From an uncultured Methanosarcinales archaeon (GTDB lineage: Archaea > Nanobdellota > Nanobdellia > Woesearchaeales > GW2011-AR9), in assembly GCA_964434885.1 (NCBI GenBank), contig CAYSWQ010000003.1:6882-70881 (forward strand): DNA of 64,000 bases, in the 5' to 3' direction. Under the pieces are notes generated by a model. That model was given only the letters and a program-made list of their open reading frames with translations, had not been told where the DNA came from and made no database searches. Positions within the stretch are counted from its first letter, which is position 1. Each line of letters opens with the position of its first letter. Positions 1 through 43,847 of this stretch are shown here, one piece after another. A program made the translations under genes and the position numbers.

Positions 1-197
1 GGATTTCTTAAGTAGTTGATCCAGTTTTGTATTTTATCTTTGCCATCATAGAACATAAAGAATGCCGCAGTACAAGCAATCACTGTGCCAATCGTTCCTG
101 AAATTTCAATCGGCAAATTGGTTTTGAAGATGATTAGAAAGATTAGCAGAAACGCTGGAAAAGCATAAGCTAACTGGACAAAAGTTAGGCCAAACAT
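1..197 (-). CDS. Partial membrane protein; N-terminal part only, gene continues beyond window start
   Basis: Minus-strand ATG at 197-195 opens a hydrophobic reading frame that runs to position 1 with no stop. Next gene in the same direction after the 704-aa membrane protein. Confidence 0.3.
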   Translation of the reverse strand, partial: MFGLTFVQLAYAFPAFLLIFLIIFKTNLPIEISGTIGTVIACTAAFFMFYDGKDKIQNWINYLRN

Positions 198-243
198 TAT
201 TTTTTCTTTATGTTTCAGTTCTGGAGGGATATCATACGCCAAC

Positions 244-2319
244 CTAAATCACCATTTTAATATATTTTGCTGCCTGTTGAATATCTTGTTTAATTCCTGA
301 GAAAGCTGATCTCTTCAAAGTAAATTTAATGCTTAACCATAACGTGTAGTCAATTATCAGGAAACAAACAATCATCACCATAATCTTAGTATTAGCAAAT
401 AATGGAATTTTGATAATCATAGAGCAGGCTAAGATTATCAATAAATCAAAAAAAGTGATGAAGATAAAAATACCTAATAAGTGAAGTAGGAATTTACCAT
501 AGCTTCTTAACGGTGGGATAAAATAGCAAAACAAAGCTAAAGGGAAAATCACCACCCCAAAACAAGCTACAATGTATCTCAAGACTAACATTAACGATGT
601 AATTAATAGAGTAAACAAATAAGAACCAGCATAAACAAACTGCAGTCCAATATTAACTATGTTGTCAGCTGTCAACATGAAAAACTTAGGATCAATCAAG
701 TTAATGATTCCACTATTCAGAATCGTGCTTAAACTCAAAACCACATCATAGATGTAAAAGGAGGCTTGAATCAGAATAATCATCAAGAAAGCATCTTTCA
801 ACATGTCCTTAGCATAAGCTCTTTTGACTGGATCAGCATTACTAACTAAGAAAACTGATCCCGCATAGATGAACAGGAAAATGTAGAAGAAACTTAAGAT
901 GTATCTAATTACTGACCATACGCCATGAAAAATATCTATTGAAGGTTCTGCAGTTAATAATTTCTGAACTGCTAGAAGCAGAGGCAACAAAGGAGCATTG
1001 ATTACTACTAAAATATATTCATAAATTTTCTCAGGTAGACAAGAAGCAATATTTGTTATTCCGCATTCTTTTTGTTGCTGCGGACTAGCAGCAATAACAA
1101 CAGGAACACATAATAAGAGAATCAGCAAAACTGGAATAATTATTTTCTTGAACTGTGATCTTGCTAATCTGTAAATAAGATAGATTAATAGAATAAATGT
1201 AAGCAAGTAAAAAAGTAAATTAAGGTCAGCATTTTTCCCATTGATATTTAGCTTGTCAACTTTCTCCTGGTTAACTGTTAAATTACAGCCGGAAGTAAAA
1301 TTGTAAAAGTGGTTAAAAGCAAATAGATTGCACTGGTCAGTGTTTTTGACATAAAAAGTATTTTGGTCTAGATAAACATTATTTTGTGTGACACGGGTGA
1401 AATTATGGCTTCTGAGATAAGCAAGATAATAAGGTTTCTTGTCAAAGACCAAATCATAATAATGGTTTTGAAATGTTAGGTAAGAGTTATTAAAACTCAA
1501 CTTGAAAAAAGCATAATTATTTACTTTTAAAATTCCTTTAGTGGTGTTGTAGTATTGGTTGATGATCCTTAAGTTAGCTGTTGGTTTTACTTTGTAATAC
1601 TCAACCTCCTTTCCCCCAGAAATATTAATGTGGTCTGGCTGGTAGTTAGAATACCAATAATCACAAGTGTAACAATACTTCTTACATTTCTGACCATACC
1701 ATTTGCAACAGTACTTATTCCATTGATAATGATCTACTTTAATGTTGGTGTCAATATCTAACTTGACTTTGATCTTGCCGTCAGAATTAATTGAAATGTT
1801 ACTGAACTTTTTGTTATCTTGATATTGGTTGTTAAAATAGTATTTCAGTTTAGCTTCGTTCTGGATTAACTGGTAAGTTCTTCTACAATCTCCTTGGCTA
1901 GTGTGAGGATAGTAGGGTGATTGATAATTCAAAGGAACATAAACATAATAGTGGAATTCACTCAAGGCTTTAGTTTTGATAGGAACATACAAAGTTTTAT
2001 TTTCATAAACGGAAGGGAAAATTGCTAACAAACTCAACCAGGCACTTCTGATTGTATGAGAATTGTAAACTGTTGTGTTATCAGGTGGGAAGTTAACAAT
2101 TATTCCTGTGTTGTATTTTTCAACAAAAGAATAGTCAGGAATAATACTCTTGTTATAGAGCAAAGAGGAATAAATCTTATCCTTTTGCGATTCGGTTAAG
2201 TTTGAATTGGTTATATTTTGACAATAAACTGGATCATTAGTTAACTGACAGTTAAAAGAAAATACAAATGGGAGCAATAGTAAGACCATTGCTCCCAAAA
2301 TAAAAATTGTTTTCTTCAT
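244..2319 (-). CDS. Large polytopic membrane protein: signal peptide, Cys-rich extracellular N-domain, about 12 C-terminal TM helices (VirB6/CedA-like topology, function unknown)
   Basis: ORF 244..2358. The likely true start is the internal M of MKKTIFILGAMVLLLLP at 2319, which makes an ATGA overlap with the upstream gene's stop. N-terminal half is hydrophilic with many Cys/Tyr/Asn. C-terminal half is almost all hydrophobic helices. Confidence 0.5.
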   Translation of the reverse strand: MKKTIFILGAMVLLLLPFVFSFNCQLTNDPVYCQNITNSNLTESQKDKIYSSLLYNKSIIPDYSFVEKYNTGIIVNFPPDNTTVYNSHTIRSAWLSLLAIFPSVYENKTLYVPIKTKALSEFHYYVYVPLNYQSPYYPHTSQGDCRRTYQLIQNEAKLKYYFNNQYQDNKKFSNISINSDGKIKVKLDIDTNIKVDHYQWNKYCCKWYGQKCKKYCYTCDYWYSNYQPDHINISGGKEVEYYKVKPTANLRIINQYYNTTKGILKVNNYAFFKLSFNNSYLTFQNHYYDLVFDKKPYYLAYLRSHNFTRVTQNNVYLDQNTFYVKNTDQCNLFAFNHFYNFTSGCNLTVNQEKVDKLNINGKNADLNLLFYLLTFILLIYLIYRLARSQFKKIIIPVLLILLLCVPVVIAASPQQQKECGITNIASCLPEKIYEYILVVINAPLLPLLLAVQKLLTAEPSIDIFHGVWSVIRYILSFFYIFLFIYAGSVFLVSNADPVKRAYAKDMLKDAFLMIILIQASFYIYDVVLSLSTILNSGIINLIDPKFFMLTADNIVNIGLQFVYAGSYLFTLLITSLMLVLRYIVACFGVVIFPLALFCYFIPPLRSYGKFLLHLLGIFIFITFFDLLIILACSMIIKIPLFANTKIMVMIVCFLIIDYTLWLSIKFTLKRSAFSGIKQDIQQAAKYIKMVI

Positions 2320-2321
2320 TT

Positions 2322-2645
2322 TCAGAAGATGTATTGAACAACCAAAGGCGCAATCCAAATTACTATCAAACCAATGATAACTCCCACGGCCATGTTCTTG
2401 GCTCGCTCTTTCTTTGCGTTGTCTCCACCAGCAGTCAAAAATGCTACTCCAGCAAATACCAAGACCAAAACCCCGATAACCGTAGCTGCGTACTTAATGA
2501 AGTTGTAAATCTTCATTATTGGACTTAGTATTGCATCAAACTGCTTTTCATCTTCTTTACTTATTGTTCCGTTAAACTCAATCTTAGCTAACACTAAAGG
2601 GGTAGCTAAGATAAGTAACAGAAGCAAAATTGGCGCCAATTTCAT
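2322..2645 (-). CDS. Small secreted/membrane protein, signal peptide plus two hydrophobic segments (TrbC/VirB2-pilin-like topology)
   Basis: MKLAPILLLLLILATPLVLA signal. GGDNAKKERAK loop between two TM helices. 4-nt overlaps with both neighbours. Confidence 0.45.
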   Translation of the reverse strand: MKLAPILLLLLILATPLVLAKIEFNGTISKEDEKQFDAILSPIMKIYNFIKYAATVIGVLVLVFAGVAFLTAGGDNAKKERAKNMAVGVIIGLIVIWIAPLVVQYIF

Positions 2646-2953
2646 TCTGTTTCACCTCCAATATTTTTATCATTTGAGAATAAATTTCTAAAACCAACAA
2701 CTTCGGGTGGGTCAAGTCTTTCGATTTTAGTTTCAGTTTTTAGTTTGGTTTTTGTTCTTCTGAAACGTCTTGGTTTTAACTTGTAGTAAATCAAGGCAAT
2801 TGACAAGTAAATAAATAATACAAAAACCCCTAACAACATCATGACAACTAAGCCTAACTTGTTCATCCCTAATTCATAAGAAAAAATAAGACTTAAAGGT
2901 AAATAAATACAAAGAAATGCCAAACTAACAATTAATTCTTTTGCTGCGTTCAT
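2642..2953 (-). CDS. Small 2-TM membrane protein with basic cytoplasmic tail (VirB3-like size and topology)
   Basis: Two N-terminal TM helices, then KPRRFRRTKTKLK. Start overlaps the methyltransferase stop (ATGA). Confidence 0.4.
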   Translation of the reverse strand: MNAAKELIVSLAFLCIYLPLSLIFSYELGMNKLGLVVMMLLGVFVLFIYLSIALIYYKLKPRRFRRTKTKLKTETKIERLDPPEVVGFRNLFSNDKNIGGETE

Positions 2954-3879
2954 TTTGATTCAACCTCTATGATTTGTTTAGCAATGGCTTCCGCCATCAA
3001 GGGCGGAACAGCATTGCCAATTTGTTTAACCATGTCATTTTTAGGACCACAGAATTCAAAACTATCAGGAAAACTTTGTAATCGAGCAAGTTCACGAGGT
3101 GTTAAGAACCGGTGATAGAAAGGATGAATATAGATCGGACTAGTGACTATAGTCTTACTTTGTCCGTAAGCATAAAGTCTACACCTACAGAAATTAAAAG
3201 TCTTGGACAATCTTCCGCCTTGAGGCAAACATTTGATTTTAGATAAAATTTCAGGAGAAGTATTAAACCAAACATGCCCATTCAAGCCATTTGGTCTTAA
3301 AGGCAAATCTCCGATTGCTTCAATTACGGTTTTCTTCTTACCAAATGGTTTAGGAAACAAATCTAATTTCTTAGCAATGATGATAACTCGTTCACGATTT
3401 TGAGGAACCCCATAATCTGCAGCATTCAAAATTCGGTAACTTACAGAATAATTTAACTTGATTAGTTCGTGAATAATCTTGTTAATAATTTTCTCTTGAT
3501 CATAATCTTTCATTGATAAAATTCCAGTAACATTTTCAATCACCACAATCTTGGGTCTAATAATACTAACAATCCGAAGAAATTCTTTGTACAACTGGTT
3601 TCTTTTATCTTTGGGATTTCTTTTTCCACAGATAGAAAACCCTTGGCATGGTGGACCACCAACAATAATGTCAACTTTACCTTTCAATTCAGAAAGTTCT
3701 TTACTGCCGATACTGGTTATGTCTGCACAAAAGCACTGTGATCCAGGGTGGTTTTTAAGAAATGTTGTTACTGCTGGCTTCCACCATTCCACACAACCAA
3801 GGATGTTGCAACCTGCTCTTTGAAAACCATGACTAAACCCACCGCAGCCTGCGAACAGGTCGAGAACATTTAATGTCAT
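2950..3879 (-). CDS. DNA (cytosine-5)-methyltransferase
   Basis: Motif I LDLFAGCGG. Motif IV GGPPCQGFS. Motif VI ENV. Motif X QIGNAVPP. 309 aa. Confidence 0.9.
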   Translation of the reverse strand: MTLNVLDLFAGCGGFSHGFQRAGCNILGCVEWWKPAVTTFLKNHPGSQCFCADITSIGSKELSELKGKVDIIVGGPPCQGFSICGKRNPKDKRNQLYKEFLRIVSIIRPKIVVIENVTGILSMKDYDQEKIINKIIHELIKLNYSVSYRILNAADYGVPQNRERVIIIAKKLDLFPKPFGKKKTVIEAIGDLPLRPNGLNGHVWFNTSPEILSKIKCLPQGGRLSKTFNFCRCRLYAYGQSKTIVTSPIYIHPFYHRFLTPRELARLQSFPDSFEFCGPKNDMVKQIGNAVPPLMAEAIAKQIIEVESK

Positions 3880-4019
3880 TTGTTTAACCTCTCGTATTCT
3901 CTAAGAATTTGTTCTCGTCTGTTTTTTGAGTATTTGTAGAGATAATACTGAAAACATACTCTACAATACTTCACCTCTTTTTCCCCTAATGGTTTTCCGC
4001 AGATTCGACACTTTGCCAT
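3876..4019 (-). CDS. 47-aa C4 zinc-ribbon protein, translationally coupled to the methyltransferase
   Basis: Hand translation gives MAKCRICGKPLGEKEVKYCRVCFQYYLYKYSKNRREQILREYERLNK with CxxC..CxxC. Its TGA stop overlaps the MTase ATG (ATGA). Not in the ORF track (<60 aa). Confidence 0.4.
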   Translation of the reverse strand: MAKCRICGKPLGEKEVKYCRVCFQYYLYKYSKNRREQILREYERLNK

Positions 4020-4446
4020 AGAATACTTAATAGTGGAGATAATATTTGAATGTCCTTAACATCTGAACTATATCTAATATATATCTTAGAAAAATCTGTG
4101 GGACTATAATTTTCTCAAAAAAGTAATTTTAGAATTTCTTGTACGTAATACGTTTAGAAGCCCGTAAATTGCGTAAAAAAAGAGGTGATTTTATATATTA
4201 CTTAGGCATATTTATATTATATTGGCACGTAAGTTAAGTAAAGTGTCTTACGGGACGCTGTGGGTCGTGCCAATTTTCAGATTTTTGAGTTTTAAGCTTA
4301 GAAACCTAGCCCGTTAACGTGCTTTACTATCATAAAGTGCATTCTTAGGTATTTTGGGGTTTGAGTGGGTTTAAATTAAGATATTTTGATTACCGTAAAG
4401 AGATAAGTTGTAGTTATTTAATGGTGGTTGTTTTTATAAAATGATA

Positions 4447-4474
4447 AGTGGACAAGTGGACAAGTGCAGGTAGA
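4447..4474 (+). promoter_or_regulatory. Tandem direct-repeat promoter element GTGGACAA-GTGGACAA-GTGCAGGTAG immediately upstream of a TATA-like box (hef promoter)
   Basis: Sequence aaGTGGACAAGTGGACAAGTGCAGGTAGaatatataaata. Near-identical elements at 12782-12808 and 14578-14606, each abutting a TATA-like box. Confidence 0.5.
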
Positions 4475-4514
4475 ATATATAAATAAGTTAATTCTCGATA
4501 AGATAACTATAACA

Positions 4515-6713
4515 ATGTTAAAAGATTTTACTCCTCGTTTGTATCAGCAAACTATTTTAGGAACGATTGTGAGAAAGAACACCTTAGTAGTTTTACCAAC
4601 TGGAATGGGAAAAACAGCATTAGCTTTTATGTTAGCGGCGCAAAGATTGAGGCAATATCCAAATTCTAAAATATTGTTGTTGGCCCCAACTAAACCTCTT
4701 TGTGAACAGCACAGGAATAGTTTTCGAAAATACTTAGATATTGAAGAAGAAAGAATTGTTTTATTTACTGGACATGTTAAGCCGGAAAAGAGAGCAGAAT
4801 TATGGAAAACTGCCCAAGTGATTATTAGTACTCCCCAAGGTTTGGAAAATGACATCATCAATAGAAAAATTGATTTGAGAGAAGTTAGTTTGTTAACTTT
4901 AGATGAGATCCATCATGCTACAGGAGATTATAGTTATGTGTGGGTTGCTAAACAATATGTTAAAATGGCTAAATTTCCACGGGTTTTGGGTTTAACTGCT
5001 TCTCCTGGTTCAGATATGGAAAAGATTAAAGAAGTTTGTCAAAACACATATATTGAAGAAGTTGAAGTTAGAACCAATAAAGACCCAGATGTTAAACCTT
5101 ATGTTCAAGAAGTGAAACAAGAATGGGTCAAAGTGAATTTACCTCCAGAGTTTGTGGAGATTAAGAAATTTTTAGAGGATTGTTATAAAAGTAAATTGAA
5201 ACAAATTCTAGAGTTGGGTTATTGTAATCATATAGGTTTAAATAAAATTGAGTTGATTAAATTACAAGGTCATTTGCAAGGAAGAATTTCTAGAGGAGAA
5301 AGAGAAATGCCAATTTTAAAATCGGTTTCTTTGTTAGCGGAAGCATTGAAAGTTCAGCACGGTTTAGAATTGTTAGAAACCCAAGGAGTAAAAGCAGTGT
5401 TTTCTTACTTAAATCGGTTACAAAAAGAATCTTATTCTACTAAAGTGAAAGCAGTTCGTAATTTAGCTAGAGATGTTAATTTTAAATCGGCCTTGGTTTT
5501 GGTCAATAGTTTGGTTGAGAAAAAGATTGAACATCCCAAATTAACTAAATTAAAAGAACTAGTTAGAGAAGAAGTGAAGAGAGATGATGCACGAATAATT
5601 ATCTTTACTCAATTTAGGGATTCTGGTTCTGAGATTGTGGAAGAATTAAATAAAATTGAAAATGTGATGGCCCAATTATTTGTGGGACAAAGTAAAAAAA
5701 GTGGTACTGGATTAAGTCAAAAAAAACAAAAAGAAGTTCTGGATGATTTTCGAGAAGGGCAGTTTAATATCTTGGTGGCTACTTCAGTAGGAGAAGAAGG
5801 CCTAGATGTCCCTTCAGTAGATTTAGTAATTTTTCATGAACCAGTTCCTAGTGCGATTAGAACTATTCAAAGAGCAGGAAGAACTGGTCGTTTAGAAAAA
5901 GGAAGAGTTATGGTCTTGATGACTAAAGGAACAAGAGATGAAGGTTATCGTTGGAGTGCTTTTCATAAAGAAAAAAGAATGTATGGTGATTTGGAAAAGA
6001 TCAAAAAAGGTTTTTCTTTGAAAGAAAACCCAATAGTTACTTTAGAAAAATTCATCCCAAAAGAACAAGAAGTTTTGATTTTAGCAGACCATCGAGAAAA
6101 AGGAGGAAGAGTAGTCAAGGAATTAATTGATTTGGGAATTAATTTAGAATTAAAACAATTAGAAAGTGCAGACTATATCTTAAGTGGTCGGGTGGGGGTA
6201 GAGAAAAAAGGAATTTATGATTTTGTATCTTCAATAGTTGATGGCAGATTGTTGGAACAAGTTAAATATTTAAAACAAAATTTTGAAAAATGTTTGGTGG
6301 TCGTGGAAGGAGAAGAAGATATTTATTCTGTCCGGAAAGTTCATGCTAATGCAATACGTGGGATGTTGGCGGCAATTACTATTGGATATGGGGTTCCTGT
6401 TTTATATACTAAAAATGCTAAAGATACAGCCGGCCTTTTATCTGTTATTGCTAAAAGAGAGCAGGACAAAGGCAGAGATTATTCTTTGCATGAACGTAAA
6501 CCAATTTCTTTGAAAGAACAGCAAGAATTTATTGTTTCTGCTTTTCCTGGAATTGGTTTGAACACAGCAAAGATTTTGTTGGAACATTTTGGAAGTGTTG
6601 AAAAATTAGTTGGTTCTTCTTTAGCAGAATTACGAGAAATAGAAGGGATTGGAGAAAAGATTTCTTGTAAAATAAAAGAAGTTTTAGAAGCAAAATATGT
6701 TGTTGATAAATAA
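4515..6713 (+). CDS. hef: Hef: helicase-associated endonuclease for fork-structured DNA (SF2 helicase + XPF/ERCC4 nuclease + tandem HhH)
   Basis: LPTGMGKT (Walker A). DEIHHATG (DExH). HEPVPSAIRTIQRAGRTGR (motif VI). C-terminal ILADHREKGG (ERCC4 nuclease). FPGIGLNTAKILLEHFGS...IEGIGEKI (HhH2). ORF opens at 4464 but the conserved start is probably MLKDFTPRLYQ at 4515. Confidence 0.85.
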   Translation: MLKDFTPRLYQQTILGTIVRKNTLVVLPTGMGKTALAFMLAAQRLRQYPNSKILLLAPTKPLCEQHRNSFRKYLDIEEERIVLFTGHVKPEKRAELWKTAQVIISTPQGLENDIINRKIDLREVSLLTLDEIHHATGDYSYVWVAKQYVKMAKFPRVLGLTASPGSDMEKIKEVCQNTYIEEVEVRTNKDPDVKPYVQEVKQEWVKVNLPPEFVEIKKFLEDCYKSKLKQILELGYCNHIGLNKIELIKLQGHLQGRISRGEREMPILKSVSLLAEALKVQHGLELLETQGVKAVFSYLNRLQKESYSTKVKAVRNLARDVNFKSALVLVNSLVEKKIEHPKLTKLKELVREEVKRDDARIIIFTQFRDSGSEIVEELNKIENVMAQLFVGQSKKSGTGLSQKKQKEVLDDFREGQFNILVATSVGEEGLDVPSVDLVIFHEPVPSAIRTIQRAGRTGRLEKGRVMVLMTKGTRDEGYRWSAFHKEKRMYGDLEKIKKGFSLKENPIVTLEKFIPKEQEVLILADHREKGGRVVKELIDLGINLELKQLESADYILSGRVGVEKKGIYDFVSSIVDGRLLEQVKYLKQNFEKCLVVVEGEEDIYSVRKVHANAIRGMLAAITIGYGVPVLYTKNAKDTAGLLSVIAKREQDKGRDYSLHERKPISLKEQQEFIVSAFPGIGLNTAKILLEHFGSVEKLVGSSLAELREIEGIGEKISCKIKEVLEAKYVVDK

Positions 6714-8600: not shown

Positions 8601-9332
8601 TTATTGTTTATATATCTTTTTGCTCAATTTTTGATAACAATAGTCTGTTATCCACCTAAGGTTTTCAATATCTTCTTTGTTATAATCAATAAGTAATTCT
8701 AGCCATTCTTTATCTCCAGAAGCATGGAACGCTTTCCATAAATCAACAGGGTTGCCTTTTAATTTGGGGTGTCGAGAGATAGAAAGTTTTTTTTCCACTT
8801 CTTTTAATCCTCCAATCAAATTTAAATTAATACAAAGGGGTTTTAGATCCAAATGGGGCATAGGGAAAGTTAAATTTAATTGTTTTTTTAATTTTGGTAA
8901 GTCAAAGGCGCTGCCATTAAAAGTAATTACAAGTTTGTAATGGGCGAGTTGTTTTTGAAGAATGTTGGTGGTTAAATTTGCTCCATGAACAAAGGTTTTA
9001 GTTTGGTATTCATCTGCTAAACCAACTAAAATTACTTTTCCTTTCGAATCCACTTCAATATCCACATAACAAGTTTCTTCTTTAAAATAATTGTATAATC
9101 TCCAAGTTTCTTTTTGGGGTAAATTTTTTTTGAAATAAGAAGTGTTTTCATTTAAAAGTTGGATTTGGGCTTCTTTAATCTGGCGATCGTAATGGTATTT
9201 TCTTAATTGGGAAATACCTTTAATTTTTTTTGTTTGGAGAAAATTTTGCCAGTCTTTGATACCTTGTTGCCAAAGACTTTGCTCTGTTTTAGTTGATATT
9301 TTGTCTAAAAAAATAAAAGAGTTTCTAATCAT
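8601..9332 (-). CDS. DEDDy-type 3'-5' exonuclease (RNase H-fold, DnaQ/PolB-exo-like)
   Basis: Exo I YVDIEVD. Exo II ITFNGSAFDLPKL. Exo III YNKEDIENL. Confidence 0.5.
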   Translation of the reverse strand: MIRNSFIFLDKISTKTEQSLWQQGIKDWQNFLQTKKIKGISQLRKYHYDRQIKEAQIQLLNENTSYFKKNLPQKETWRLYNYFKEETCYVDIEVDSKGKVILVGLADEYQTKTFVHGANLTTNILQKQLAHYKLVITFNGSAFDLPKLKKQLNLTFPMPHLDLKPLCINLNLIGGLKEVEKKLSISRHPKLKGNPVDLWKAFHASGDKEWLELLIDYNKEDIENLRWITDYCYQKLSKKIYKQ

Positions 9333-11947: not shown

Positions 11948-11960
11948 TTAAAAATAATTA

Positions 11961-12049
11961 GCGCGGAGGGAGACTCGAACTCCCGATCAGAGGGTTGCAG
12001 CCTCTTGCCGTGGCCGCTTGTGGGCTTTAGCCGCTTGGCCATCCGCGCT
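11961..12049 (-). tRNA. tRNA-Cys (anticodon GCA), 89 nt, with an extra 15-17 nt insertion in the D-arm region (probable non-canonical intron)
   Basis: Reverse complement GCGCGGA...TCCGCGC acceptor stem. T-arm GGGAG TTCGAGT CTCCC. Anticodon arm AGAGG CTGCAAC CCTCT with U33, GCA, A37. The region between acceptor and anticodon stems is 36 nt instead of about 19 and contains a duplicated CAAGCGGC. Confidence 0.6.
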
Positions 12050-12742
12050 TGAGTTTAATGCGTTAATTAATCTTTGTTGCTTTATTGGATGTTCAAACCC
12101 AACATATTTAAAAAAGTTTCTGAAAGAAGATTTTTCTATATCAATATGAAGACACCTACTCCTACTACCATCTTTCCTGGTATTTAATTTAAAATGACGT
12201 ACTGGTGAAGACTTAACTCCAAACTTAGCCAACATAGATCTTAGTTGTTCAAAATATCTAATTCCAGAATCAATTAATAAACTATTCTTTGCCATTCTAA
12301 AACTTATTCTCCAACGTAATTTCTTTCCCCTAGTGATGTGTATGCTTCCTTCGTTATCAAATAATCCCCTCAAGTAAGAGCTTTGTATTTCTGGTGTGCC
12401 ATTGAAAACCCACTCGGGAACTACAAACGAATTATTGGTTTTATTTCCTACTGGAGTTCCTATCTCTTTCAAAAAAACACAGATTGGTTTTGAAATAATA
12501 AATAATTTATATCGTCTTGTGGAGTTTGGGCTTTTTTTGGAAGTGCTATCATCTACATAAATTCTTCCTTCTATTTCAAATAAATCGAAAAAACGTTGTT
12601 TGACTGCTTTTATTTCTTCTAAATTCTTTGAATAAAAAGAAGCAAGATATCTCCATTTATCAATTTGTAAATGACCATCTCCCGTTAAATCAGCTACAGT
12701 GCGAGCTAGTTTTGGATTTTTCTTTAAGTGTTGCATTTTCAA
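11987..12742 (-). CDS. Double-motif LAGLIDADG homing-endonuclease-like protein, free-standing
   Basis: LARTVADLTGDGHLQ and LRGLFDNEGSIHI motifs about 100 aa apart, Lys/Arg-rich. The last roughly 20 codons overlap the 5' part of tRNA-Cys. Confidence 0.6.
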   Translation of the reverse strand: MKMQHLKKNPKLARTVADLTGDGHLQIDKWRYLASFYSKNLEEIKAVKQRFFDLFEIEGRIYVDDSTSKKSPNSTRRYKLFIISKPICVFLKEIGTPVGNKTNNSFVVPEWVFNGTPEIQSSYLRGLFDNEGSIHITRGKKLRWRISFRMAKNSLLIDSGIRYFEQLRSMLAKFGVKSSPVRHFKLNTRKDGSRSRCLHIDIEKSSFRNFFKYVGFEHPIKQQRLINALNSSADGQAAKAHKRPRQEAATL

Positions 12743-16161: not shown

Positions 16162-16272
16162 TTTTTACACCTCTAACTCATTTTTTGGAAAGAAGATTTA
16201 TTTATAAGAATTTGTATTGTTTAGTATTATTGTTTGGTGAGGTTGTTGAGTAGTATTGTTGAATGGTGTTAT

Positions 16273-17073
16273 TTAAGTTGATTGGGTGGCAAAATCTAAA
16301 GCAAAATAATATTTTATGGGCATTAGTTGTTTATTTTTGTAAGCTGAATTTTTGCTTTCTACACAAAAAGCCACTTTTCTAGCTTCGGAATAAAACTTGT
16401 TGGTGCATTCTGAAAATTTCCATTTTGTTAATTTTTTATTTTTAATGTGGTTTTTGATACAGGTTTCTAAGTTTGATTTTTTATTACAAGCAGCCACTAA
16501 ATTGTTGGCAATTTTTCTTAATAAGTTGTATTCTTCTTGTAAATCAAAACCGAGATCAATCTCGAAATCAAGATCATAAGTATAAAGGGCATAATATTTA
16601 TCTGTTTTTGTAGATTTAATTGTTTTTTGATTTGCTTTTCCAAGAATAAAATTCTTTTCTAATTTAAGTGTATTATAATTCTTTTTGGGGCTTTTTTTAT
16701 TTACTCTTTCAGTTAAATCAGTTATAAAATCTTTTGAAAGTGAGGGAGCACAAGAAGCAAAATCTTTTTTCTTATTCCAAACAACATAATGTCTTGTTTG
16801 TGGGCCAATTTTGCCGCAAGGAATTTTATTTATAAATCCTGCGTTTGTGGCTAGTCGATGAATTGAATCTCCAGCTGCTTGTTTAACTAAAAAGTCTGAA
16901 TTGATTAAATCTTGTTCGGCTAAAAAATAATAATTATTAAGAAAATCTATCTGCCAAGTTCCTTTTGGTTCTAAGTTTAAATTAGTTGTTTGGCTGAAAT
17001 AAAAAAATACACCCAAAGCTATAAAAAATCCAAAAACAATGATCCAATGAAAAATTAATGCTTTTTTGTTCAT
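16273..17073 (-). CDS. Pilin-like/secreted protein with class III-type signal (MNKKA + hydrophobic helix)
   Basis: MNKKALIFHWIIVFGFFIALGVFF N-terminus. Last gene of the coupled minus-strand block. Confidence 0.4.
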   Translation of the reverse strand: MNKKALIFHWIIVFGFFIALGVFFYFSQTTNLNLEPKGTWQIDFLNNYYFLAEQDLINSDFLVKQAAGDSIHRLATNAGFINKIPCGKIGPQTRHYVVWNKKKDFASCAPSLSKDFITDLTERVNKKSPKKNYNTLKLEKNFILGKANQKTIKSTKTDKYYALYTYDLDFEIDLGFDLQEEYNLLRKIANNLVAACNKKSNLETCIKNHIKNKKLTKWKFSECTNKFYSEARKVAFCVESKNSAYKNKQLMPIKYYFALDFATQST

Positions 17074-17076
17074 TTT

Positions 17077-17580
17077 TTAAGTTATCTTAAACCCGGTGGC
17101 TGCTTTGTACCGGGCTTGGCCCTCGCTTGTTTTTTCCTCACCTACAATTGTAACAGAAATGGGTTGTTTTTTTCCAATGATCTCTGCACTGGCATAATTT
17201 GATGTTAACCCTCCCCCAACAACAATTGGATAGTACAATTTTTCACCAGGGTATTTGATGATAATGCCTTTAAAAAAAGGGTCTTTTGAATCTAAAAATA
17301 TTTTCTTTACATTTTTTTCTAAACTTGGTTTCAAAGAAGGATTGTTTTCAGTAGCAACGATTAATTCTGTCAAGGTTAATCCATTTTCAGTCGGAGCTCT
17401 TAAATAATTAAACAAAACTTGTTTGGATCTAATTTCATCTAAATTAGAGATTGATGTCAAGTCATTTTTTTTTAAACTCCCATTCAAAATAATACTTGTA
17501 AAAAAGAAAAAAAATACTAAGAGTATAATAATAGTTAACAAATCAATTGCGTCTCCAAATTGGGCTTTCTTATTTCTCAT
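17077..17580 (-). CDS. Archaeal type IV pilin-like protein (class III signal peptide)
   Basis: MRNKKAQ|FGDAIDLLTIIILLVFFFF. 167 aa. Confidence 0.45.
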   Translation of the reverse strand: MRNKKAQFGDAIDLLTIIILLVFFFFFTSIILNGSLKKNDLTSISNLDEIRSKQVLFNYLRAPTENGLTLTELIVATENNPSLKPSLEKNVKKIFLDSKDPFFKGIIIKYPGEKLYYPIVVGGGLTSNYASAEIIGKKQPISVTIVGEEKTSEGQARYKAATGFKIT

Positions 17581-18029
17581 GTTTTTACTTGAACTCCAAC
17601 TTCCAACAAGGCGGGCTGGATTTGGTCTCCTTTTTTTACTAAAATATTTTTGTAGATAGTATAATCTCGGTTATTGAGATAATATTTAGTTGTGGTTATT
17701 TCTTGATTAATATTTGTTAATTTCAAACCAAAATTTGGTTCTTTTTTATCATCCACGGGATAACATTCCCTTAATTTTGTTTCAGTAAATTTTTTGGGAT
17801 CTATAATTCCAGGATAAGTTCGATCTCCTTTTTGATAGGCTAAACAATCAGGAGAATTGATGAATCGATCAATAATGAATGTTGTTTTTATTTGATCGGG
17901 AACGTCGACTACATTTTTTTGAAAATTAAAAATTTGTATAGCGAAGCCGATAATAGCAATTGTAAATACAGTCGATAGAATCATCCAAAAGATAGTTTTT
18001 CTTAGTTCATATTGGGCTTTTTTGTTCAT
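17577..18029 (-). CDS. Archaeal type IV pilin-like protein
   Basis: MNKKAQ|YELRKTIFWMILSTVFTIAIIGFAI. ATGA overlap with neighbour. Confidence 0.45.
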   Translation of the reverse strand: MNKKAQYELRKTIFWMILSTVFTIAIIGFAIQIFNFQKNVVDVPDQIKTTFIIDRFINSPDCLAYQKGDRTYPGIIDPKKFTETKLRECYPVDDKKEPNFGLKLTNINQEITTTKYYLNNRDYTIYKNILVKKGDQIQPALLEVGVQVKT

Positions 18030-18439
18030 TGGTTAACCTCTTTGTCTTTGCATTTACGAATAGTTATGGTTTTGTCTTTTTTTTCTAAACAAAGGGTTTT
18101 TGGTTTTTCTATTGCGCTGTTGGCAAAATAACCCGAAGGTAAATAAAAAGATTTTTGGTTCCTTAGTTTTTCAGATTCCCCTGGTTCAAATACTGAAATT
18201 GTACCTTGTCTCATAACAAAATTGTATTTGCTGATATTATAAGGGTATTGTACTACTGCATCTCCTGGAACACTTACTAAAACATCAATCATCATTTTGA
18301 TATCTTGAGCAGTTCTAATTTTGCTATTATTTTCTGAGGTCGCTAAATTCTTAGCATAGCTAACCAAAATAAAAATAAGAGCCAAAACAGCCAAAACTTC
18401 AAAAATCATTACTAAGATACTGGCAGCTTTTTTGTTCAT
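18026..18439 (-). CDS. Archaeal type IV pilin-like protein
   Basis: MNKKAAS|ILVMIFEVLAVLALIFILV. Confidence 0.45.
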   Translation of the reverse strand: MNKKAASILVMIFEVLAVLALIFILVSYAKNLATSENNSKIRTAQDIKMMIDVLVSVPGDAVVQYPYNISKYNFVMRQGTISVFEPGESEKLRNQKSFYLPSGYFANSAIEKPKTLCLEKKDKTITIRKCKDKEVNQ

Positions 18440-18454
18440 TTTGATAAATCTTAA

Positions 18455-19267
18455 TTATTGATTAATTAACCCATATACAGGTAATTGTTTGCCTTTTACC
18501 ATTTTGTAGGTGACTTTAAGTTCATTACATTTTGGATCCAAACAAATAAAAATTTTATTTTCTTTATTTAGTAGATAAATTGCATTTCTACGATAACCTA
18601 AATTAAAGGAAAAAGGAAAATTGTTTAAAGGCAATAGTTGGTGTCCGGCAGAATCTCTTCCGAGGAAAAATCCTCCTTTTAAGGTATATTCTTCTTTGTT
18701 TGTTCCTTCTATTGCCAACCAATCAGTAAAAGGAATAGTTCTCATTTTGGTGATATCTACTCGGAGTTCTTTTTGGGTTCCAAGATTTATTTTTCCGATT
18801 CCTTTGCATTTAGATTTTGTGTATTTGATAATTGGCTTCCAATTTTTTTGTTTATCATAGAATGAAGATACTGATTTGAAAAGACAGATACAGGCCTGTT
18901 CTTTACAATCTTTTGCTTCAGGATTAGACCAAGAAACACACCCTTCTTTTTGATTGGGTAAAGTTAAACTCTTAGCACAAGCTTCTACTTTAGCTGCCCC
19001 TTGACTAAAACCCACAATTGTTGTTTTGTCATCTAAAATTAAATTGGTTATTTCTGTTTGATCTTTGTTTTTTTCAAAAGTTATGATTTTTTTAACAAAT
19101 TTATCAAAACTGTCTTCGGCTTGAGAAGGACCAATAAATTTGGCTACGAACATAATGGTAGGAACAAACACCATGAAAGTTAAAACTATCATTACTAGTG
19201 CTTTGAGGACTAATTGTGCTTTTTTCATTGAATTAAATTTATGTTTGTTTACTCTTTTTAGTATCAC
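18455..19267 (-). CDS. Pilin-like protein (probable start at internal MKKAQ, position 19228)
   Basis: MKKAQLVLKALVMIVLTFMVFV. Cys-containing globular domain. Confidence 0.4.
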   Translation of the reverse strand: MILKRVNKHKFNSMKKAQLVLKALVMIVLTFMVFVPTIMFVAKFIGPSQAEDSFDKFVKKIITFEKNKDQTEITNLILDDKTTIVGFSQGAAKVEACAKSLTLPNQKEGCVSWSNPEAKDCKEQACICLFKSVSSFYDKQKNWKPIIKYTKSKCKGIGKINLGTQKELRVDITKMRTIPFTDWLAIEGTNKEEYTLKGGFFLGRDSAGHQLLPLNNFPFSFNLGYRRNAIYLLNKENKIFICLDPKCNELKVTYKMVKGKQLPVYGLINQ

Positions 19268-19592
19268 AATCTTTGTTAAGTTCGGTTACTTTTGCATCAG
19301 TAGTAGTAGTACTTGGACAACCAGGGAACTCTTTGTTTTTAGTTGTTCCTGCATCACAAGGACATTTATCAAATAAGTCACCAATATTATCATTGTCATA
19401 ATCTCCTAATGCACTAATTTTTTCTCCTAGGTTTCCATAAGCACCTTCTCCGCCTTTCTGGAACCAAATGATTACTAAAGTAACAACAACAACTGCTAAG
19501 ATTGCTAGAACCAATTGTTGCCAAGTCATGGCTTTTTTATTGAATAACATTTTATCACCATTAATTTTTTTATTTTCCTGCAATATCTCCAC
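19239..19592 (-). CDS. Pilin-like protein with thrombospondin-type-3-like Ca-binding repeat
   Basis: MLFNKKAMTWQQLVLAILAVVVVTLVII. DYDNDNIGDLFDKCPCD. Confidence 0.4.
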   Translation of the reverse strand: MEILQENKKINGDKMLFNKKAMTWQQLVLAILAVVVVTLVIIWFQKGGEGAYGNLGEKISALGDYDNDNIGDLFDKCPCDAGTTKNKEFPGCPSTTTTDAKVTELNKDCDTKKSKQT

Positions 19593-20484
19593 TAAAACAA
19601 TTTTTTTGTGCGGTTTTCAAATCACTCAAATAAATTGTGCTGGTATCTCTTTCTGTGTAGAGGTTTTTGTAGATATCGGCGGCGGCACTGAGAGATTGTT
19701 GGGTTGCACCAGCCGCTCCACTTCCAGCCAAATATAATCCTGGGCCAGCAAAAATACCACTCTTCAACATAATTACTCCTCCGGCTGCTACGGCCAGGTT
19801 TCCGAAAGCCCGACCTCCTTTTTTGAGAATTGTTTCCCAAGAAACTTTTTTGTTCTTAGCACCAAAACTAATCCCATAAGCATGGTTAGGTTTAATATCT
19901 GCTTGAATAACGACTCTACCTGGACCTCCGTGGCTTTGAAAATATTCTATGTATTTTTTGCCTGCCTTATCATAAGGATTATTAAGAAGATATTTATAAA
20001 AATCATTAAAAGAAATTTGGTCTCCTTTCTCAAAACCATCGGTATTTTTAATAAAAAGAGAATAACATAAAAAACAATCATTTTTTTTACTAAATTCAGG
20101 TAAAACTGTTTTGGTTGCCCCTTCTTCAACTGCTTCTGATGCTAAGTCTTTCTTAAGTATTTCTTCGTATCGACCTTCCCCAAACATCCACCAACATTGA
20201 GCCATGCTATCTGCGATCTGTTTTTTTACTTTTTCTTTATCTTCTTTGATATCTTGATCACAAGTTTTACATAATAAAGGAGAAGTGTGGATGTCTTGGT
20301 TATCTATTTGAATAGTGGTAGTGGTAGCTCTTAAGTTGACACTCCATTGACAAATCTCTTCTGCTTTTTTACAATCATCAGTAGTACTAAAATTAATAAC
20401 TATGGGGGCCAAAACTAGAAAAGAAACAATGGTAATGATTGCCCCAACTAAAAAAGAGGAGGCTTCTACTGCTCGTTTATTCAT
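19570..20484 (-). CDS. Pilin-like/secreted protein (304 aa)
   Basis: MNKRAVEASSFLVGAIITIVSFLVLAPIV N-terminus. First gene of the 20.5-16.3 kb block. Confidence 0.4.
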   Translation of the reverse strand: MNKRAVEASSFLVGAIITIVSFLVLAPIVINFSTTDDCKKAEEICQWSVNLRATTTTIQIDNQDIHTSPLLCKTCDQDIKEDKEKVKKQIADSMAQCWWMFGEGRYEEILKKDLASEAVEEGATKTVLPEFSKKNDCFLCYSLFIKNTDGFEKGDQISFNDFYKYLLNNPYDKAGKKYIEYFQSHGGPGRVVIQADIKPNHAYGISFGAKNKKVSWETILKKGGRAFGNLAVAAGGVIMLKSGIFAGPGLYLAGSGAAGATQQSLSAAADIYKNLYTERDTSTIYLSDLKTAQKNCFSGDIAGK

Positions 20485-20597
20485 CTATCTAACCTCTTAA
20501 TTATAATTAAAGAAGTAGCATATAAAAAACTTGTGTTTGATTTTAATAATTGCATAATCTTTAAATATTATTATTTATCAGTAGTTATTGATTTAAG

Positions 20598-21512
20598 ATG
20601 AAATTTTGGTTCAAAAAAATGTTTCCTTACTTAGCAGCGGGAATAATGGTGGTAAGTAGCTGTAAGAAGGAAGAAGACGATAAAAATGTACTTCAATCAT
20701 TAGATAAAATAGTACAAGAAGAAGCTCTAACTCCTGTGCCTTGGCATTTTCATAAAAAAATAACTAAATACATGGTTCGAGAAATTAATAAAGATGAATC
20801 AAGGGAATGTATCTTGACCGAATATGTTAAAGAAGATTTGGATCGAAGATCAGAAGAGTTAATTTATGTTTTGAAGAAAGTCCCCAAAGTGGGAGATGGT
20901 TTAGGTGATTTTTTTTCTAGTACAAAAAAAATGTTAATTGATTATCCTCAACACATAACCACTCAACTAGAAAAAAAAGGGGTGCTCAAAGATACTTGTC
21001 CAGCATTGGTGACTTGGCAAGGTGATCCTCTTATCTGGAATATCTCTCCTAGTTTGTCATTAAGAATATATCGGTGTATGAAAGAAGTTCCAGTAGAAAA
21101 GTGTACAGATGGCATAGACAATGATTGTGATGGAGAAGAAGATTTTGGAGATAGTGATTGTCATAAAACCTCTCCAAAAATACAAGAACCCAAATGCAAT
21201 TATTCTGTTTTTATGTCAAAATCAAAAAAAAGAATTAGTCAATATTTAGGAATTTTTCCTAGCCAAATTACTTTTGAAAAAGGCGAATTTAGACCAGGAA
21301 AAGGGGTTTCGGTAGCAATATCTACACCTAATGGGGATGCTTTATTTGGAAAAATTCTGCCGATTTTAGAAAAAAAATTAGGTAGGGGATCTGGTCGAAT
21401 TGTAAAAATGTGGAGCCATATTGATGGGGGCCCAATGGCTAATGGGTGTTATGTCAATCTGCAAAGATATGATCGCTTGGTGAGAATCCAGGTTTTTTCA
21501 GATATTTATTAA
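20598..21512 (+). CDS. Putative lipoprotein with MopE-like CxDGxDNDCDG metal-binding motif
   Basis: Signal + VVSSCKKEED lipobox-like. CTDGIDNDCDGEEDFGDSDC. Only plus-strand gene inside the pilin-like region, convergent with a 4-nt overlap onto 21509..22882. Confidence 0.4.
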   Translation: MKFWFKKMFPYLAAGIMVVSSCKKEEDDKNVLQSLDKIVQEEALTPVPWHFHKKITKYMVREINKDESRECILTEYVKEDLDRRSEELIYVLKKVPKVGDGLGDFFSSTKKMLIDYPQHITTQLEKKGVLKDTCPALVTWQGDPLIWNISPSLSLRIYRCMKEVPVEKCTDGIDNDCDGEEDFGDSDCHKTSPKIQEPKCNYSVFMSKSKKRISQYLGIFPSQITFEKGEFRPGKGVSVAISTPNGDALFGKILPILEKKLGRGSGRIVKMWSHIDGGPMANGCYVNLQRYDRLVRIQVFSDIY

Positions 21513-22882
21513 CTTGCTTCCCAACGGTATTTTTTAGTTGATATTTCTCGACAAGTTACTGTAATTTTTCGTATTGGGTTTTCCGATCCAGCAAAATAAT
21601 TATTCAATTCTAATTTTTTTCCTTTAGATAACTCATTACATTCATACCAATAGCGATCCGGTCCACAAACCAAAGGATAATTATCAGAAATGTGCCATTG
21701 AAAATCTTTCTCCCAAAAATTTTTAGCTAAATTCTTTTGATCTGCAGTGTCAGCTGGAATGCTGCGAATGGTTTCAACTATTCTCTTTTTACCAAGCCCT
21801 TGTAGTGGTCGGAAGAGTTTCCAATCAGAACGAGAAATAAGACTGCCAATCTTTGCTTCTCCAGTAGCACAATGTTTTTGTGAAGTATCTGTTGCTAACA
21901 AGGCACACCCTTTGAGTTGACTGGGTGTTAATTTATTGCACTGGCTTTGATAAGTATGACAGGCTAAACCACCAGGACATTTTCCTCTAATAGGTAATTT
22001 TTTTGGATTTTCACCATCTCCCATTAATTCTACCCACCAATATTTTTTCCACTCTCCTTCTTTTCCACAAAGTTTTAGATTTCCAGTAGATACTTGATAA
22101 CCAATTGAATTCTTAGTATTTTGGTCGTCCCCTAAATAATTATTGTTTAAGCCATCTTCTGTATTCCCTCTTTTAACAGAAGGGAAAAAACAAATAGATC
22201 TATCTTTTGATAAATAAAGCCAACCCCCATCTTCTAAACCAGAAGTTTTTTTCTCTGTTTTTCCATCTTTGGTGATGGGATAATCAATCCGATTATGATT
22301 AAAACCCAAAGTTGGAGCCGAATAATACAAGCTTAACCAACCAACATTCTGATGATATTTTGAAGGATTTGGTTTCTTATTGGTAGCTAGATATTTAAAA
22401 TAAAAATTAGCAGAAATTGGGTTGTTCTGATCATCTTCTCCAGCAATGACACAGGGTTTAAATCCTTTGATATCTTTATTTAATTTTTTAGTTAATTCGA
22501 TATCAATTTGTTTACCACCTAAACTTTCAATCCCAATAGAATCTTTAGATAATGAAATTACTGTACCTTTTTCTTGTAAAATTGGTAATCCTGAACGACT
22601 ATAATCTTTAACTCGATAATTCATAAAACATTCTGTTCTCTTACTTTCAAGCATACTTTTGATGGTGGAGACTAATTTAGTAATTGCTTTGTTGTGTTCT
22701 ACTGGAACTTGAACTTTTTTTCCGGCAATCTTATCTTTGCCTACTTCAAAATCAGGAACATATCCCTTTAATCCTTCTTTTATCCCACTCAAATCATCAA
22801 AACCCCCCGACATCCAGATTAAAGAAAGAACGAGAGCTACTGAAGCAATAATCATAATGGTTAATGTTCGGGAAGCAACCAT
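21509..22882 (-). CDS. Membrane-anchored extracellular protein (457 aa, N-terminal TM, Cys-rich)
   Basis: MVASRTLTIMIIASVALVLSLIW anchor. Many Cys/Gly/Trp in the ectodomain. Confidence 0.4.
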   Translation of the reverse strand: MVASRTLTIMIIASVALVLSLIWMSGGFDDLSGIKEGLKGYVPDFEVGKDKIAGKKVQVPVEHNKAITKLVSTIKSMLESKRTECFMNYRVKDYSRSGLPILQEKGTVISLSKDSIGIESLGGKQIDIELTKKLNKDIKGFKPCVIAGEDDQNNPISANFYFKYLATNKKPNPSKYHQNVGWLSLYYSAPTLGFNHNRIDYPITKDGKTEKKTSGLEDGGWLYLSKDRSICFFPSVKRGNTEDGLNNNYLGDDQNTKNSIGYQVSTGNLKLCGKEGEWKKYWWVELMGDGENPKKLPIRGKCPGGLACHTYQSQCNKLTPSQLKGCALLATDTSQKHCATGEAKIGSLISRSDWKLFRPLQGLGKKRIVETIRSIPADTADQKNLAKNFWEKDFQWHISDNYPLVCGPDRYWYECNELSKGKKLELNNYFAGSENPIRKITVTCREISTKKYRWEAS

Positions 22883-23025
22883 TATCTATTTCCTCCAAAC
22901 TTAGAAAGCAAGCCTTGAAGAAAACTACCTAAATCATTATACCAAATAACTACTAAGATTAACAAAACAATTGCTAAAATCATTAAAACTAAAATCCACA
23001 TTTCCATTCCTTTTTTTCCTTTCAT
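22882..23025 (-). CDS. 47-aa single-TM peptide (hand-translated; not in ORF track)
   Basis: MKGKKGMEMWILVLMILAIVLLILVVIWYNDLGSFLQGLLSKFGGNR. TAATG overlap with the downstream gene and ATGA overlap with the upstream one. Confidence 0.3.
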   Translation of the reverse strand: MKGKKGMEMWILVLMILAIVLLILVVIWYNDLGSFLQGLLSKFGGNR

Positions 23026-23168
23026 GGCAATAACCTTCCTCTTAGTTTAAAGATGTAGAATAACAAAGCCAAACCCATAATCACAACCAAAATAATTACC
23101 ACGAGGTAAGTGGTGCTAATGTGTTGGGCCTTGTGGTTGTTAAAAAGAGACTTTAATTGAGTAAACAT
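23022..23168 (-). CDS. 48-aa single-TM peptide (hand-translated; not in ORF track)
   Basis: MFTQLKSLFNNHKAQHISTTYLVVIILVVIMGLALLFYIFKLRGRLLP. Coupled to both neighbours. Confidence 0.3.
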   Translation of the reverse strand: MFTQLKSLFNNHKAQHISTTYLVVIILVVIMGLALLFYIFKLRGRLLP

Positions 23169-23171
23169 TTT

Positions 23172-23847: not shown

Positions 23848-23988
23848 CTCAATACAAATATATCTTTCTAAAAAAGAATTAATCTATATAAATCTTACCT
23901 TTCGTTTAAGTTTATTTAAGAGAAAGAAGGTAAAAATATATTTAATACTTGTTGTCTAATTTTTTAAACTATGTTTTTAATATTGCTA

Positions 23989-25058: not shown

Positions 25059-25083
25059 TTTAGTATTTTAGTTTAAGGTTTAG

Positions 25084-26235: not shown

Positions 26236-26236
26236 T

Positions 26237-43807: not shown

Positions 43808-43847
<40 letters not shown>

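Follow-up and report, generated by a model that had tools for sequence, protein, structure and literature searches.

Minimal type IV secretion systems (T4SS) that are encoded in chromosomes and have no relaxase have been described in both archaea and bacteria. The Ced and Ted systems of Crenarchaeota (CedA/CedA1/CedB and TedA/TedB/TedC) are trios of a pilin, a channel protein and a VirB4-like ATPase, in which a relation between pilin and channel has been reported for CedA1 and CedA, as for VirB2 and VirB6, by Beltran et al. (2023, PMC9905601). Patescibacteria (the candidate phyla radiation, CPR), ultrasmall organisms of the episymbiont type, carry close to the replication origin a comparable set of VirB4, PrgI/VirB3, VirB6 and PF18895-type pilins, the genes of which are essential for epibiotic growth, and 37 of their VirB4 proteins cluster with archaeal homologues (Quinonero-Coronel et al. 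2025, PMC12102498). Among DPANN archaea, the nearest report is on giant proteins of nanohaloarchaea with VirB4/TraG domains, which were proposed to be secretion channels (PMC10266531), and a Black Sea study with Woesearchaeales metagenome-assembled genomes (MAGs) reported VirB4 only in Patescibacteria (PMC8067304). The searchable literature yielded no account of a system of this kind in Woesearchaeota. Here we analyse an operon at the start of a 64-kb stretch of DNA from an uncultured archaeon of the Woesearchaeota (DPANN) (contig CAYSWQ010000003.1 of assembly GCA_964434885.1; the whole stretch is hereafter the window), which encodes a pilin, a large membrane protein and the beginning of a VirB4-type ATPase together with a C5 DNA methyltransferase (MTase).

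The reading that we favour, with fair confidence, is that positions 1-4019 of the window are the front of a domesticated, chromosomal, relaxase-less and minimal T4SS-like operon, which would most likely move DNA and would have its linked MTase act on this DNA. By its VirB4 the system is closest to the conjugation machinery of monoderm bacteria (mating-pair formation class FATA, MPF-FATA), and in architecture it runs parallel to Ced/Ted (PMC9905601) and to the origin-proximal T4SS of Patescibacteria (PMC12102498). What sets it apart from these are a VirB3-VirB4 fusion, a channel protein bearing an ectodomain, two lineage-specific small proteins and a linked clade of MTases.

The operon and its secretion components

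All the operon genes lie on the minus strand, with five open reading frames (ORFs) inside the window and a sixth at its edge:

4019-3876, minus strand: Zn ribbon of 47 aa with a CxxC..CxxC pattern, which opens the operon
3879-2950, minus strand: C5-MTase of 309 aa, with all catalytic motifs and a short target-recognition region
2953-2642, minus strand: protein of 103 aa with two transmembrane (TM) helices, a K-rich linker and a conserved C-terminal GFRNLF..GG motif
2645-2322, minus strand: VirB2-like pilin precursor of 107 aa (signal peptide, TM helix, basic loop, TM helix)
2319-244, minus strand: large membrane protein of 691 aa, with a probably VirB6-like C-terminal domain
1240..2256, minus strand: ectodomain of the 691-aa protein (residues ~22-360), predicted to be beta-rich
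247..1152, minus strand: putative VirB6/TrbL-like polytopic domain of the 691-aa protein (residues 390-691)
769..924, minus strand: pilin-like helical hairpin within the VirB6-like domain (residues 466-517)
1..242, minus strand: first 80 codons (242-3) of a VirB3(PrgI)-VirB4 fusion ATPase, with a TTG start at 242, running past the window edge
4020..4463, no strand: divergent intergenic region of 444 bp between the operon and the Hef gene

The part of the sixth ORF that lies within the window passes the Pfam cut-off of the VirB3-like PrgI family (PF12666, 32 bits against 27). A 46.6-kb JGI contig matches the first 8 kb of the window with 100% identity, and a 126.8-kb ENA contig encodes the MTase protein without any change; on these contigs the edge ORF extends into a VirB3-VirB4 fusion of 1036 aa (L007:12078-15188), with two N-terminal TM helices, which form the PrgI domain, followed by a VirB4 ATPase. 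The fusion matches P-loop_TraG (5.6e-29), DUF87 and AAA_10 in Pfam, and the VirB4 of Thermoanaerobacter in the PDB (4ag5, 2.3e-33). Its best NCBIfam models are VirB4_plasma, from an integrated conjugative element (ICE) of Mycoplasma (2.6e-96), and conju_CD1110 (7e-90), both with scores under the equivalog cut-offs (323 vs 590 and 302 vs 325, respectively), and the alignment with VirB4_plasma is near full length, from query residues 6-833 to profile positions 4-893 of 894. The top 120 relatives are all labelled archaeal, except for one ‘Cloacimonetes’ MAG, and relatives occur on contigs of up to 1.47 Mb; some of these ATPases are named ‘VirB4-like’ by the NCBI pipeline.

The 107-aa protein passes the Pfam model T4SS_pilin (PF18895, 44.7 bits against a cut-off of 26.6) and falls just short of TrbC (TrbC/VirB2, 27.4 against 27.9), with a mean identity of 62% over 18 loci. 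An earlier note on this DNA, made from the sequence of the window alone, had called this protein pilin-like, had suspected in the operon the membrane core of a T4SS-like system, and had recommended a search for an ATPase and an integrase beyond the edge. The first two ideas are borne out by the pilin, the PrgI domain and the VirB4-type ATPase. What the note had named as refuting them, neither ATPase nor integrase in the vicinity and no relation to T4SS, does not hold: the VirB4-type ATPase follows directly past the window edge, and a serine recombinase of the resolvase/invertase type lies ~0.6 kb past VirB4. The genes between and at this end are, in order, a 69-aa protein with two TM helices, a 50-aa DUF5679 zinc ribbon and the 256-aa recombinase itself (L007 15269-16589, outside the window). 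The 69-aa gene and the pilin gene have a common upstream sequence, ATATTGGAGGTGA; after the VirB4 of relatives, the 69-aa protein is found again in L026 and the recombinase again in L027.

The 691-aa protein starts with a signal peptide, which is followed by a Cys-rich ectodomain (residues 22-360) that contains 10 Cys and 12 N-x-S/T sequons for N-glycosylation, and then by the polytopic region. Its 36 close homologues all come from Woesearchaeota MAGs, some of them mislabelled as Methanosarcinales, and a profile search of 1.84 billion representatives collected 689 relatives. Many of these are split into N-only genes of ~450 aa and C-only genes of ~300 aa, and the abundance of both forms indicates that the window protein is a fusion of two modules. 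Sequence-profile searches of the family against PDB, Pfam and NCBIfam returned nothing significant. In an AlphaFold 2 (AF2) model the ectodomain is beta-rich (pLDDT about 85-95), and its fold search gave no match at E<=0.001 in PDB or BFVD, TM-scores relative to the query being no higher than 0.14 for the best matches.

The C-terminal domain of ~300 aa was modelled from 42 sequences (AF2, pLDDT 91.8, pTM 0.82). Among 350,542 PDB chains, Foldseek placed TrwI/VirB6 of plasmid R388 at ranks 1, 2, 4 and 5 (8rtd_L, 8rt9_F, 7o3v_G and 7o3v_F), the top two being weak matches (prob 0.96-0.99, E 0.035-0.042, TM 0.29-0.39). An hhalign comparison aligned the pilin profile with residues 466-517 of the 691-aa protein (probability 94.7%, E 5.7e-8), and 18 of the 31 C-only family members match Pfam T4SS_pilin weakly. 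Matches of the TrbL type are also weak: one C-only member hits TrbL_4 (0.0021), one hits TrbL, and two homologues of the 691-aa protein carry precomputed TrbL_3 matches. Taken together, the fold ranks, the pilin-like hairpin and the TrbL-type matches lend moderate support to the VirB6 call of the earlier note, and make the C-terminal domain probably, if not provenly, VirB6-like.

Two small proteins complete the set. The 103-aa protein has two TM helices in a hydropathy scan, from which the topologies of the 107-aa and 691-aa proteins were also taken, and its alignment over 10 loci shows conservation limited to the C-terminal GFRNLF..GG motif. It had been proposed as the VirB3 of the system; the VirB3/PrgI domain lies instead in the edge ORF, fused to VirB4, and the 103-aa product is a lineage-specific membrane protein of the operon. 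The Zn ribbon has homologues in 9 loci, with the pattern C-x2-C...C-x2-C-x2-F-x2-(W/Y)KY. At loci without the MTase it stands directly upstream of the TM/pilin genes, and it is therefore a member of the operon rather than an accessory of the MTase as such. Searches of curated families gave no match for the 103-aa, 47-aa or 691-aa proteins. Public annotation of the identical contigs (L001, L007, L002) lacks the Zn-ribbon gene (3876-4019, minus strand), which is thus an unannotated small gene. Another 47-aa ORF, upstream of a divergent MTase in L013, was considered as a Zn ribbon and discarded, being ribbon-helix-helix (RHH)-like and unrelated.

As for the layout, the earlier note had described a chain of five genes joined by ATGA overlaps. 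Its coordinates are right, and so are three of the overlaps (Zn ribbon/MTase, MTase/103-aa protein and 103-aa protein/pilin); the junction between the pilin and the 691-aa gene is a 2-nt spacer (TGAAAATG), and 1 nt separates the 691-aa gene from the edge ORF. Four-nucleotide overlaps are frequent elsewhere in the genome according to the gene tables, so this coupling is ordinary operon architecture and not a statistical oddity. The length of 704 aa once given to the large protein belongs to a longer ORF from a TTG at 2358, since 2319-244 encodes 691 aa. Conserved homologues of the operon genes occur in independent loci, the number of which ranges from 9 to more than 20 according to the gene, and the ORFs are confirmed as real and conserved.

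The window proteins were mapped onto 27 further loci, and a metagenome scan gave at least 7 loci; for MTase adjacency, 23 loci are informative. The core order in relatives is Zn ribbon, small TM protein, pilin, VirB6-like protein and VirB3-VirB4. The operon is conserved across the lineage: it occurs in more than 20 loci, on contigs of up to 0.9 Mb, and some genomes hold two or three copies. One MAG has two divergent MTase-pilin-VirB6-like-VirB4 copies back to back (L012; GCA_964498285.1, CAZCGN010000001.1, 1-15213), with two tyrosine recombinase genes between them, VirB6-like proteins only 46% identical to each other, and a third, partial copy on another contig (L032). The junction between the VirB6-like gene and VirB4 is a recurrent insertion site in relatives (L013 12099-14531; L031 10817-12469; gaps in L015, L020, L023, L026 and L030), occupied by a UvrD-type helicase in one locus, by a reverse-transcriptase gene in another, and elsewhere by 0.8-3 kb of uncharacterised DNA. 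Synteny was also considered as a sign of vertical descent. This argument was dropped, since the neighbours of the TrmB and AsnC types that recur beside the loci share only 25-30% identity and belong to paralogous regulator families.

By the sequence of VirB4, the closest systems are those of the monoderm MPF-FATA class, such as those of the Mycoplasma ICE (VirB4 Mbov_0397, pilin-like Mbov_0395) and of the Clostridioides conjugative transposon (CTn; CD1110, PrgI, PrgH). The likeness lies in the end-to-end alignment of VirB4, in the PrgI-family VirB3 domain, and in the small pilin-like hairpin protein and polytopic VirB6-like protein encoded just upstream of VirB4. Besides the VirB4 scores below both cut-offs, the Woesearchaeal system differs in its archaeal host, in the ~340-aa ectodomain of its VirB6-like protein, and in having a Zn ribbon, a GFRNLF protein and a C5-MTase as operon members. 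Furthermore, no relaxase, type IV coupling protein (T4CP), VirB8-like protein or cell-wall hydrolase was detected near the operon; for relaxases and coupling proteins, this refers to precomputed Pfam tables that cover the 64-kb window and a further 10 kb past its edge, and which divergent archaeal relaxases could escape.

Ced and Ted resemble the operon in architecture, as chromosomal and relaxase-less sets of pilin, channel (here a probable one) and VirB4-like protein. The probable channel protein has here a segment homologous to its cognate pilin, as in CedA/CedA1 (PMC9905601), and the pilin, like TedC, is made with a signal peptide that can be cleaved off. In contrast, the VirB4 of the operon is long, fused to VirB3 and best matched by curated models of the monoderm (MPF-FATA) type, its lineage belongs to DPANN and not to Thermoproteota, neighbours of the HerA, Rad50 or ParA type did not appear, and a linkage to an MTase is not reported in PMC9905601, where the word ‘methyltransferase’ is absent. 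With the T4SS of Patescibacteria the operon has in common the ultrasmall, episymbiont-type organisms, the chromosomal and relaxase-less gene set (with VirB6 a probable member here), and a position near the origin, given that a candidate oriC lies ~40 kb away. The differences are the other domain of life, the VirB3-VirB4 fusion, of a kind that PMC12102498 did not find, and the MTase: no DNA methyltransferase is among the neighbours reported there, the only ‘methyltransferase’ named being the rRNA enzyme KsgA. The operon would be an archaeal counterpart of the Patescibacteria T4SS, and a third type of minimal archaeal T4SS beside Ced and Ted.

A methyltransferase clade linked to the operon

Conjugative plasmids and phages carry orphan and anti-restriction DNA methyltransferases, solitary enzymes without a cognate endonuclease that accompany DNA-transfer genes. 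The MTase of this operon differs from them in being translationally coupled inside a mating-pore operon, at times fused to a Zn ribbon, and co-inherited with the operon over a deep divergence. It is of the Dcm type, as the earlier note had recognised, and complete: PF00145 covers residues 4-304 (1.9e-75), TIGR00675 matches at 9.8e-65, PDB relatives include M.HaeIII, M.HhaI and DNMT1, and the translation contains the conserved motifs I (FxGxGG), IV (PCQ), VI (ENV), VIII (QxRxR) and X (GNAVP), which read DLFAGCGG, GGPPCQGFS, ENV, QNRER and GNAVPP. The note had also seen no restriction partner, and none adjoins the gene: its neighbours, the Zn ribbon and the 2-TM protein, match no nuclease family, and there is no Vsr in the window.

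Several observations tie this enzyme to the secretion genes. An orthologous MTase adjoins the operon in 13 of the 23 informative loci, with 54-65% identity among eight orthologues compared pairwise. It is found in three positions, usually after the Zn ribbon, in L019 between the pilin and the VirB6-like gene, and in L042 after VirB4, from which only a small peptidase gene on the opposite strand separates it. The enzymes form a clade of 96 clusters at identities of at least 46%, below which there is a sharp fall to the ~40% of generic MTases. For 23 members of the clade the longest contig has the same size as that of VirB6-like or VirB4 matches, and all three of the members picked without reference to T4SS genes (3/3) turned out to adjoin T4SS genes. 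The Zn ribbon is fused to the N-terminus of the MTase in 8 of the 96 clusters, and the pairwise identities of MTases and VirB6-like proteins show a modest correlation (r = 0.47). One MTase clade is therefore co-inherited with the operon, and such a tight evolutionary linkage makes a functional tie between the two likely.

Other methylases are found around some of the loci. Unrelated C5-MTases lie nearby in three more loci, one of them with Vsr. Among the loci without the orthologue, L014 has an unrelated C5-MTase with a Vsr mismatch endonuclease (8801-9199, minus strand), and L013 an unrelated C5-MTase with the RHH-like 47-aa ORF mentioned above (8942-9085, minus strand). N6/N4 MTases, DUF2779 and type I restriction-modification (R-M) genes cluster upstream of several operon loci. 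CpG depletion was also considered as a footprint of the MTase and rejected, since relatives that lack the orthologous enzyme have CpG values just as low, or lower still (0.23-0.79). The observed/expected ratio is 0.45 in the window and 0.22-0.79 in loci L012-L031, highest in the most GC-rich of them, and the depletion extends over all related loci, independently of the presence of the operon MTase.

What the system could move, and competing explanations

A working model can be drawn from these parts. A membrane-anchored VirB4 hexamer would power the extraction and assembly of pilins, and would also drive the substrate through the VirB6-like channel, whose glycosylated, Cys-rich ectodomain may touch the partner cell. 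The substrate would most likely be DNA, passed between cells without a relaxase, as in Ced/Ted import, and the co-translated MTase, at times fused to the Zn ribbon, would methylate the DNA linked to this traffic and thereby give it a mark of self or shield it from restriction. We infer both the DNA substrate and the action of the MTase on transfer-linked DNA from the linkage of the enzyme, from the Ced/Ted precedent and from general knowledge of anti-restriction methylases; the presence of a methyltransferase linked to the operon suggests, at least, that the cargo or its consequences involve DNA.

Some points weigh against this DNA-moving reading. The assignment to VirB6 depends on Foldseek values of E 0.035-0.042 and TM no higher than 0.39, without an HMM match to the PDB. 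About 10 of the 23 loci have no orthologous MTase, which is therefore dispensable for the machine, and several loci stand amid other methylases, HsdR/HsdM, integrases and reverse transcriptases, so that the linkage could partly reflect a hotspot of defence and mobile genes. The authors of the Patescibacteria study think that the T4SS of these bacteria serves functions other than conjugation (PMC12102498). Lastly, the two or three copies in some genomes, and the resolvase after VirB4 both here and in L027, fit mobility.

This last point leads to the idea, close to that of the earlier note, that the operon is the transfer module of an ICE or integrated plasmid, which a serine recombinase would integrate and excise, and whose MTase would be an anti-restriction cargo protecting the element in new hosts. 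It would explain the serine recombinase with its DUF5679 partner ~0.6 kb past VirB4 and the homologous resolvase right after VirB4 in L027, the tyrosine recombinases and reverse transcriptases that adjoin homologous loci, the two to three copies in some genomes (including the two back-to-back divergent ones of L012), and the fact that the closest curated VirB4 models derive from ICEs. Moreover, archaeal conjugative plasmids likewise have no recognisable relaxases (PMC9905601), for which reason the absence of a relaxase is weak evidence in this matter. However, around the cluster only short repeats at chance level were found, with no flanking direct (att) repeats, no tRNA adjoins it (the nearest, tRNA-Leu, is 8 kb off), and no T4CP, relaxase, replication gene or conserved cargo goes with it. 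Its GC content shows no clear composition shift (0.35 over 2001-4000, 0.31 in the whole window), and its flanks are core genes; neighbours of this kind are Hef, TrpRS, RadA, Hjc, TFE, an RPA-like protein, Cdc6/Orc1, the two PolD subunits, MCM and TBP. The VirB6-like paralogues of a same genome are only ~46% identical, so that the copies are ancient and do not come from recent transposition. An integrated element is thus not shown at this place, and we consider this explanation quite improbable.

A second alternative keeps the machine but changes its purpose, which would be interaction with, or feeding on, a host cell through adhesion or through the exchange of proteins or small molecules, as proposed for Patescibacteria and for the nanohaloarchaeal VirB4 systems (PMC10266531), the MTase being a linked passenger. 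Recognition of a partner cell is suggested by the channel protein, with its ectodomain that is large and glycosylated, the relaxase-less T4SS near the Patescibacteria origin is required for epibiotic growth (PMC12102498), and the MTase is missing from ~10 of the 23 loci. Yet a mere passenger would hardly be kept with intact motifs and 54-65% identity in genomes of ~1 Mb, be translationally coupled within the operon, remain linked after having moved within it at least two times, and be repeatedly fused to the operon's own Zn-ribbon gene. Retention, coupling, relocation and fusions are not predicted by pure hitch-hiking, and we give this alternative only a limited chance. Far less credible still is that the enzyme belongs to an ordinary type II R-M system with an unrecognised endonuclease, to which the T4SS genes would be mere neighbours. 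The distant C5-MTases in L013 and L014 do resemble classical modules of this kind, with the RHH-like upstream ORF and Vsr, and HsdR, HsdM and N6_N4 MTases cluster near several loci; but the MTase studied here is flanked on both sides by the conserved Zn-ribbon and 2-TM genes, which are neither nuclease-like nor nuclease-sized, its window has no Vsr, and the flanking is identical in L015, L021, L035 and L044.

If the reading of a domesticated, DNA-moving operon is extended, Woesearchaeota, and perhaps DPANN more widely, could possess a DNA-trafficking T4SS with its own Zn-ribbon/C5-methyltransferase module, which would mark DNA in relation to its transfer. Either incoming DNA, from the host or from conspecifics, would be methylated on entry, or the cell would mark its own genome, so that imported DNA could be told apart and then recombined or consumed. 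We propose this broader idea tentatively, as a long shot rather than as an expectation. Were it true, epigenetic self-marking would be built into a machine for secretion or uptake, a link undescribed for Ced/Ted, Patescibacteria and classical conjugation systems. The genomes of DPANN archaea are tiny, and these organisms are believed to live at the expense of other cells; the operon is a concrete candidate for exchange with such partners. The linkage also offers a testable handle, since the 5-methylcytosine (5mC) motif could be read from metagenomes and compared between genomes with and without the gene.

Genomic surroundings

The upstream region of the operon had been described as an unusually long leader of 580 bp (3880-4460). 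Part of it is the 47-aa ORF, and the true intergenic region is 4020-4463 (444 bp), common to the operon and to the divergently transcribed Hef helicase-nuclease gene at 4464-6713 (DEAD, ERCC4 and HhH domains), where promoters are presumably located. Checks of Rfam, folding and conservation found nothing special in it. A special leader or non-coding RNA was rejected, with no Rfam match at E<=1 and a fold z of -0.27; the region could not be aligned with relatives and showed no conservation, and scans for promoter-like (sigma-70-type) and terminator-like signals stayed at background level. A viral origin of the cluster was rejected as well: PHROGs matches concern only a generic MTase and a generic ATPase, and give no sign of a virus.

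Farther into the window there are other features of interest:

43270-44362: most AT-rich stretch of the window (GC 0.21-0.24), just upstream of Cdc6/Orc1 and probably a replication origin
44363-45565: cdc6
45567-50732: PolD

The AT-rich stretch contains three copies of an element that resembles an origin recognition box (ORB), TCCATAGGAAATAAAGG, at 43568, 44173 and 44254-44287. The replication origin probably lies here, and its distance of ~40 kb to the operon recalls the origin-proximal T4SS reported in Patescibacteria. Between both, a run of ~17 consecutive genes without any Pfam match (~16270-26750) adjoins two predicted surface proteins of giant size, the first with CarboxypepD_reg repeats (2049 aa, 26746-32895) and the second with a weak Stig1 match (1779 aa, 35098-40437). 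The run and the giant proteins may form a block of host-interaction or mobile genes. Finally, a LAGLIDADG-like ORF (11987-12736, minus strand), with a weak Pfam match on an identical contig, overlaps by ~60 nt a 91-nt tRNA-Leu(CAA) gene (11959-12049), and is called as a gene on the public contig L002 and not on L001.

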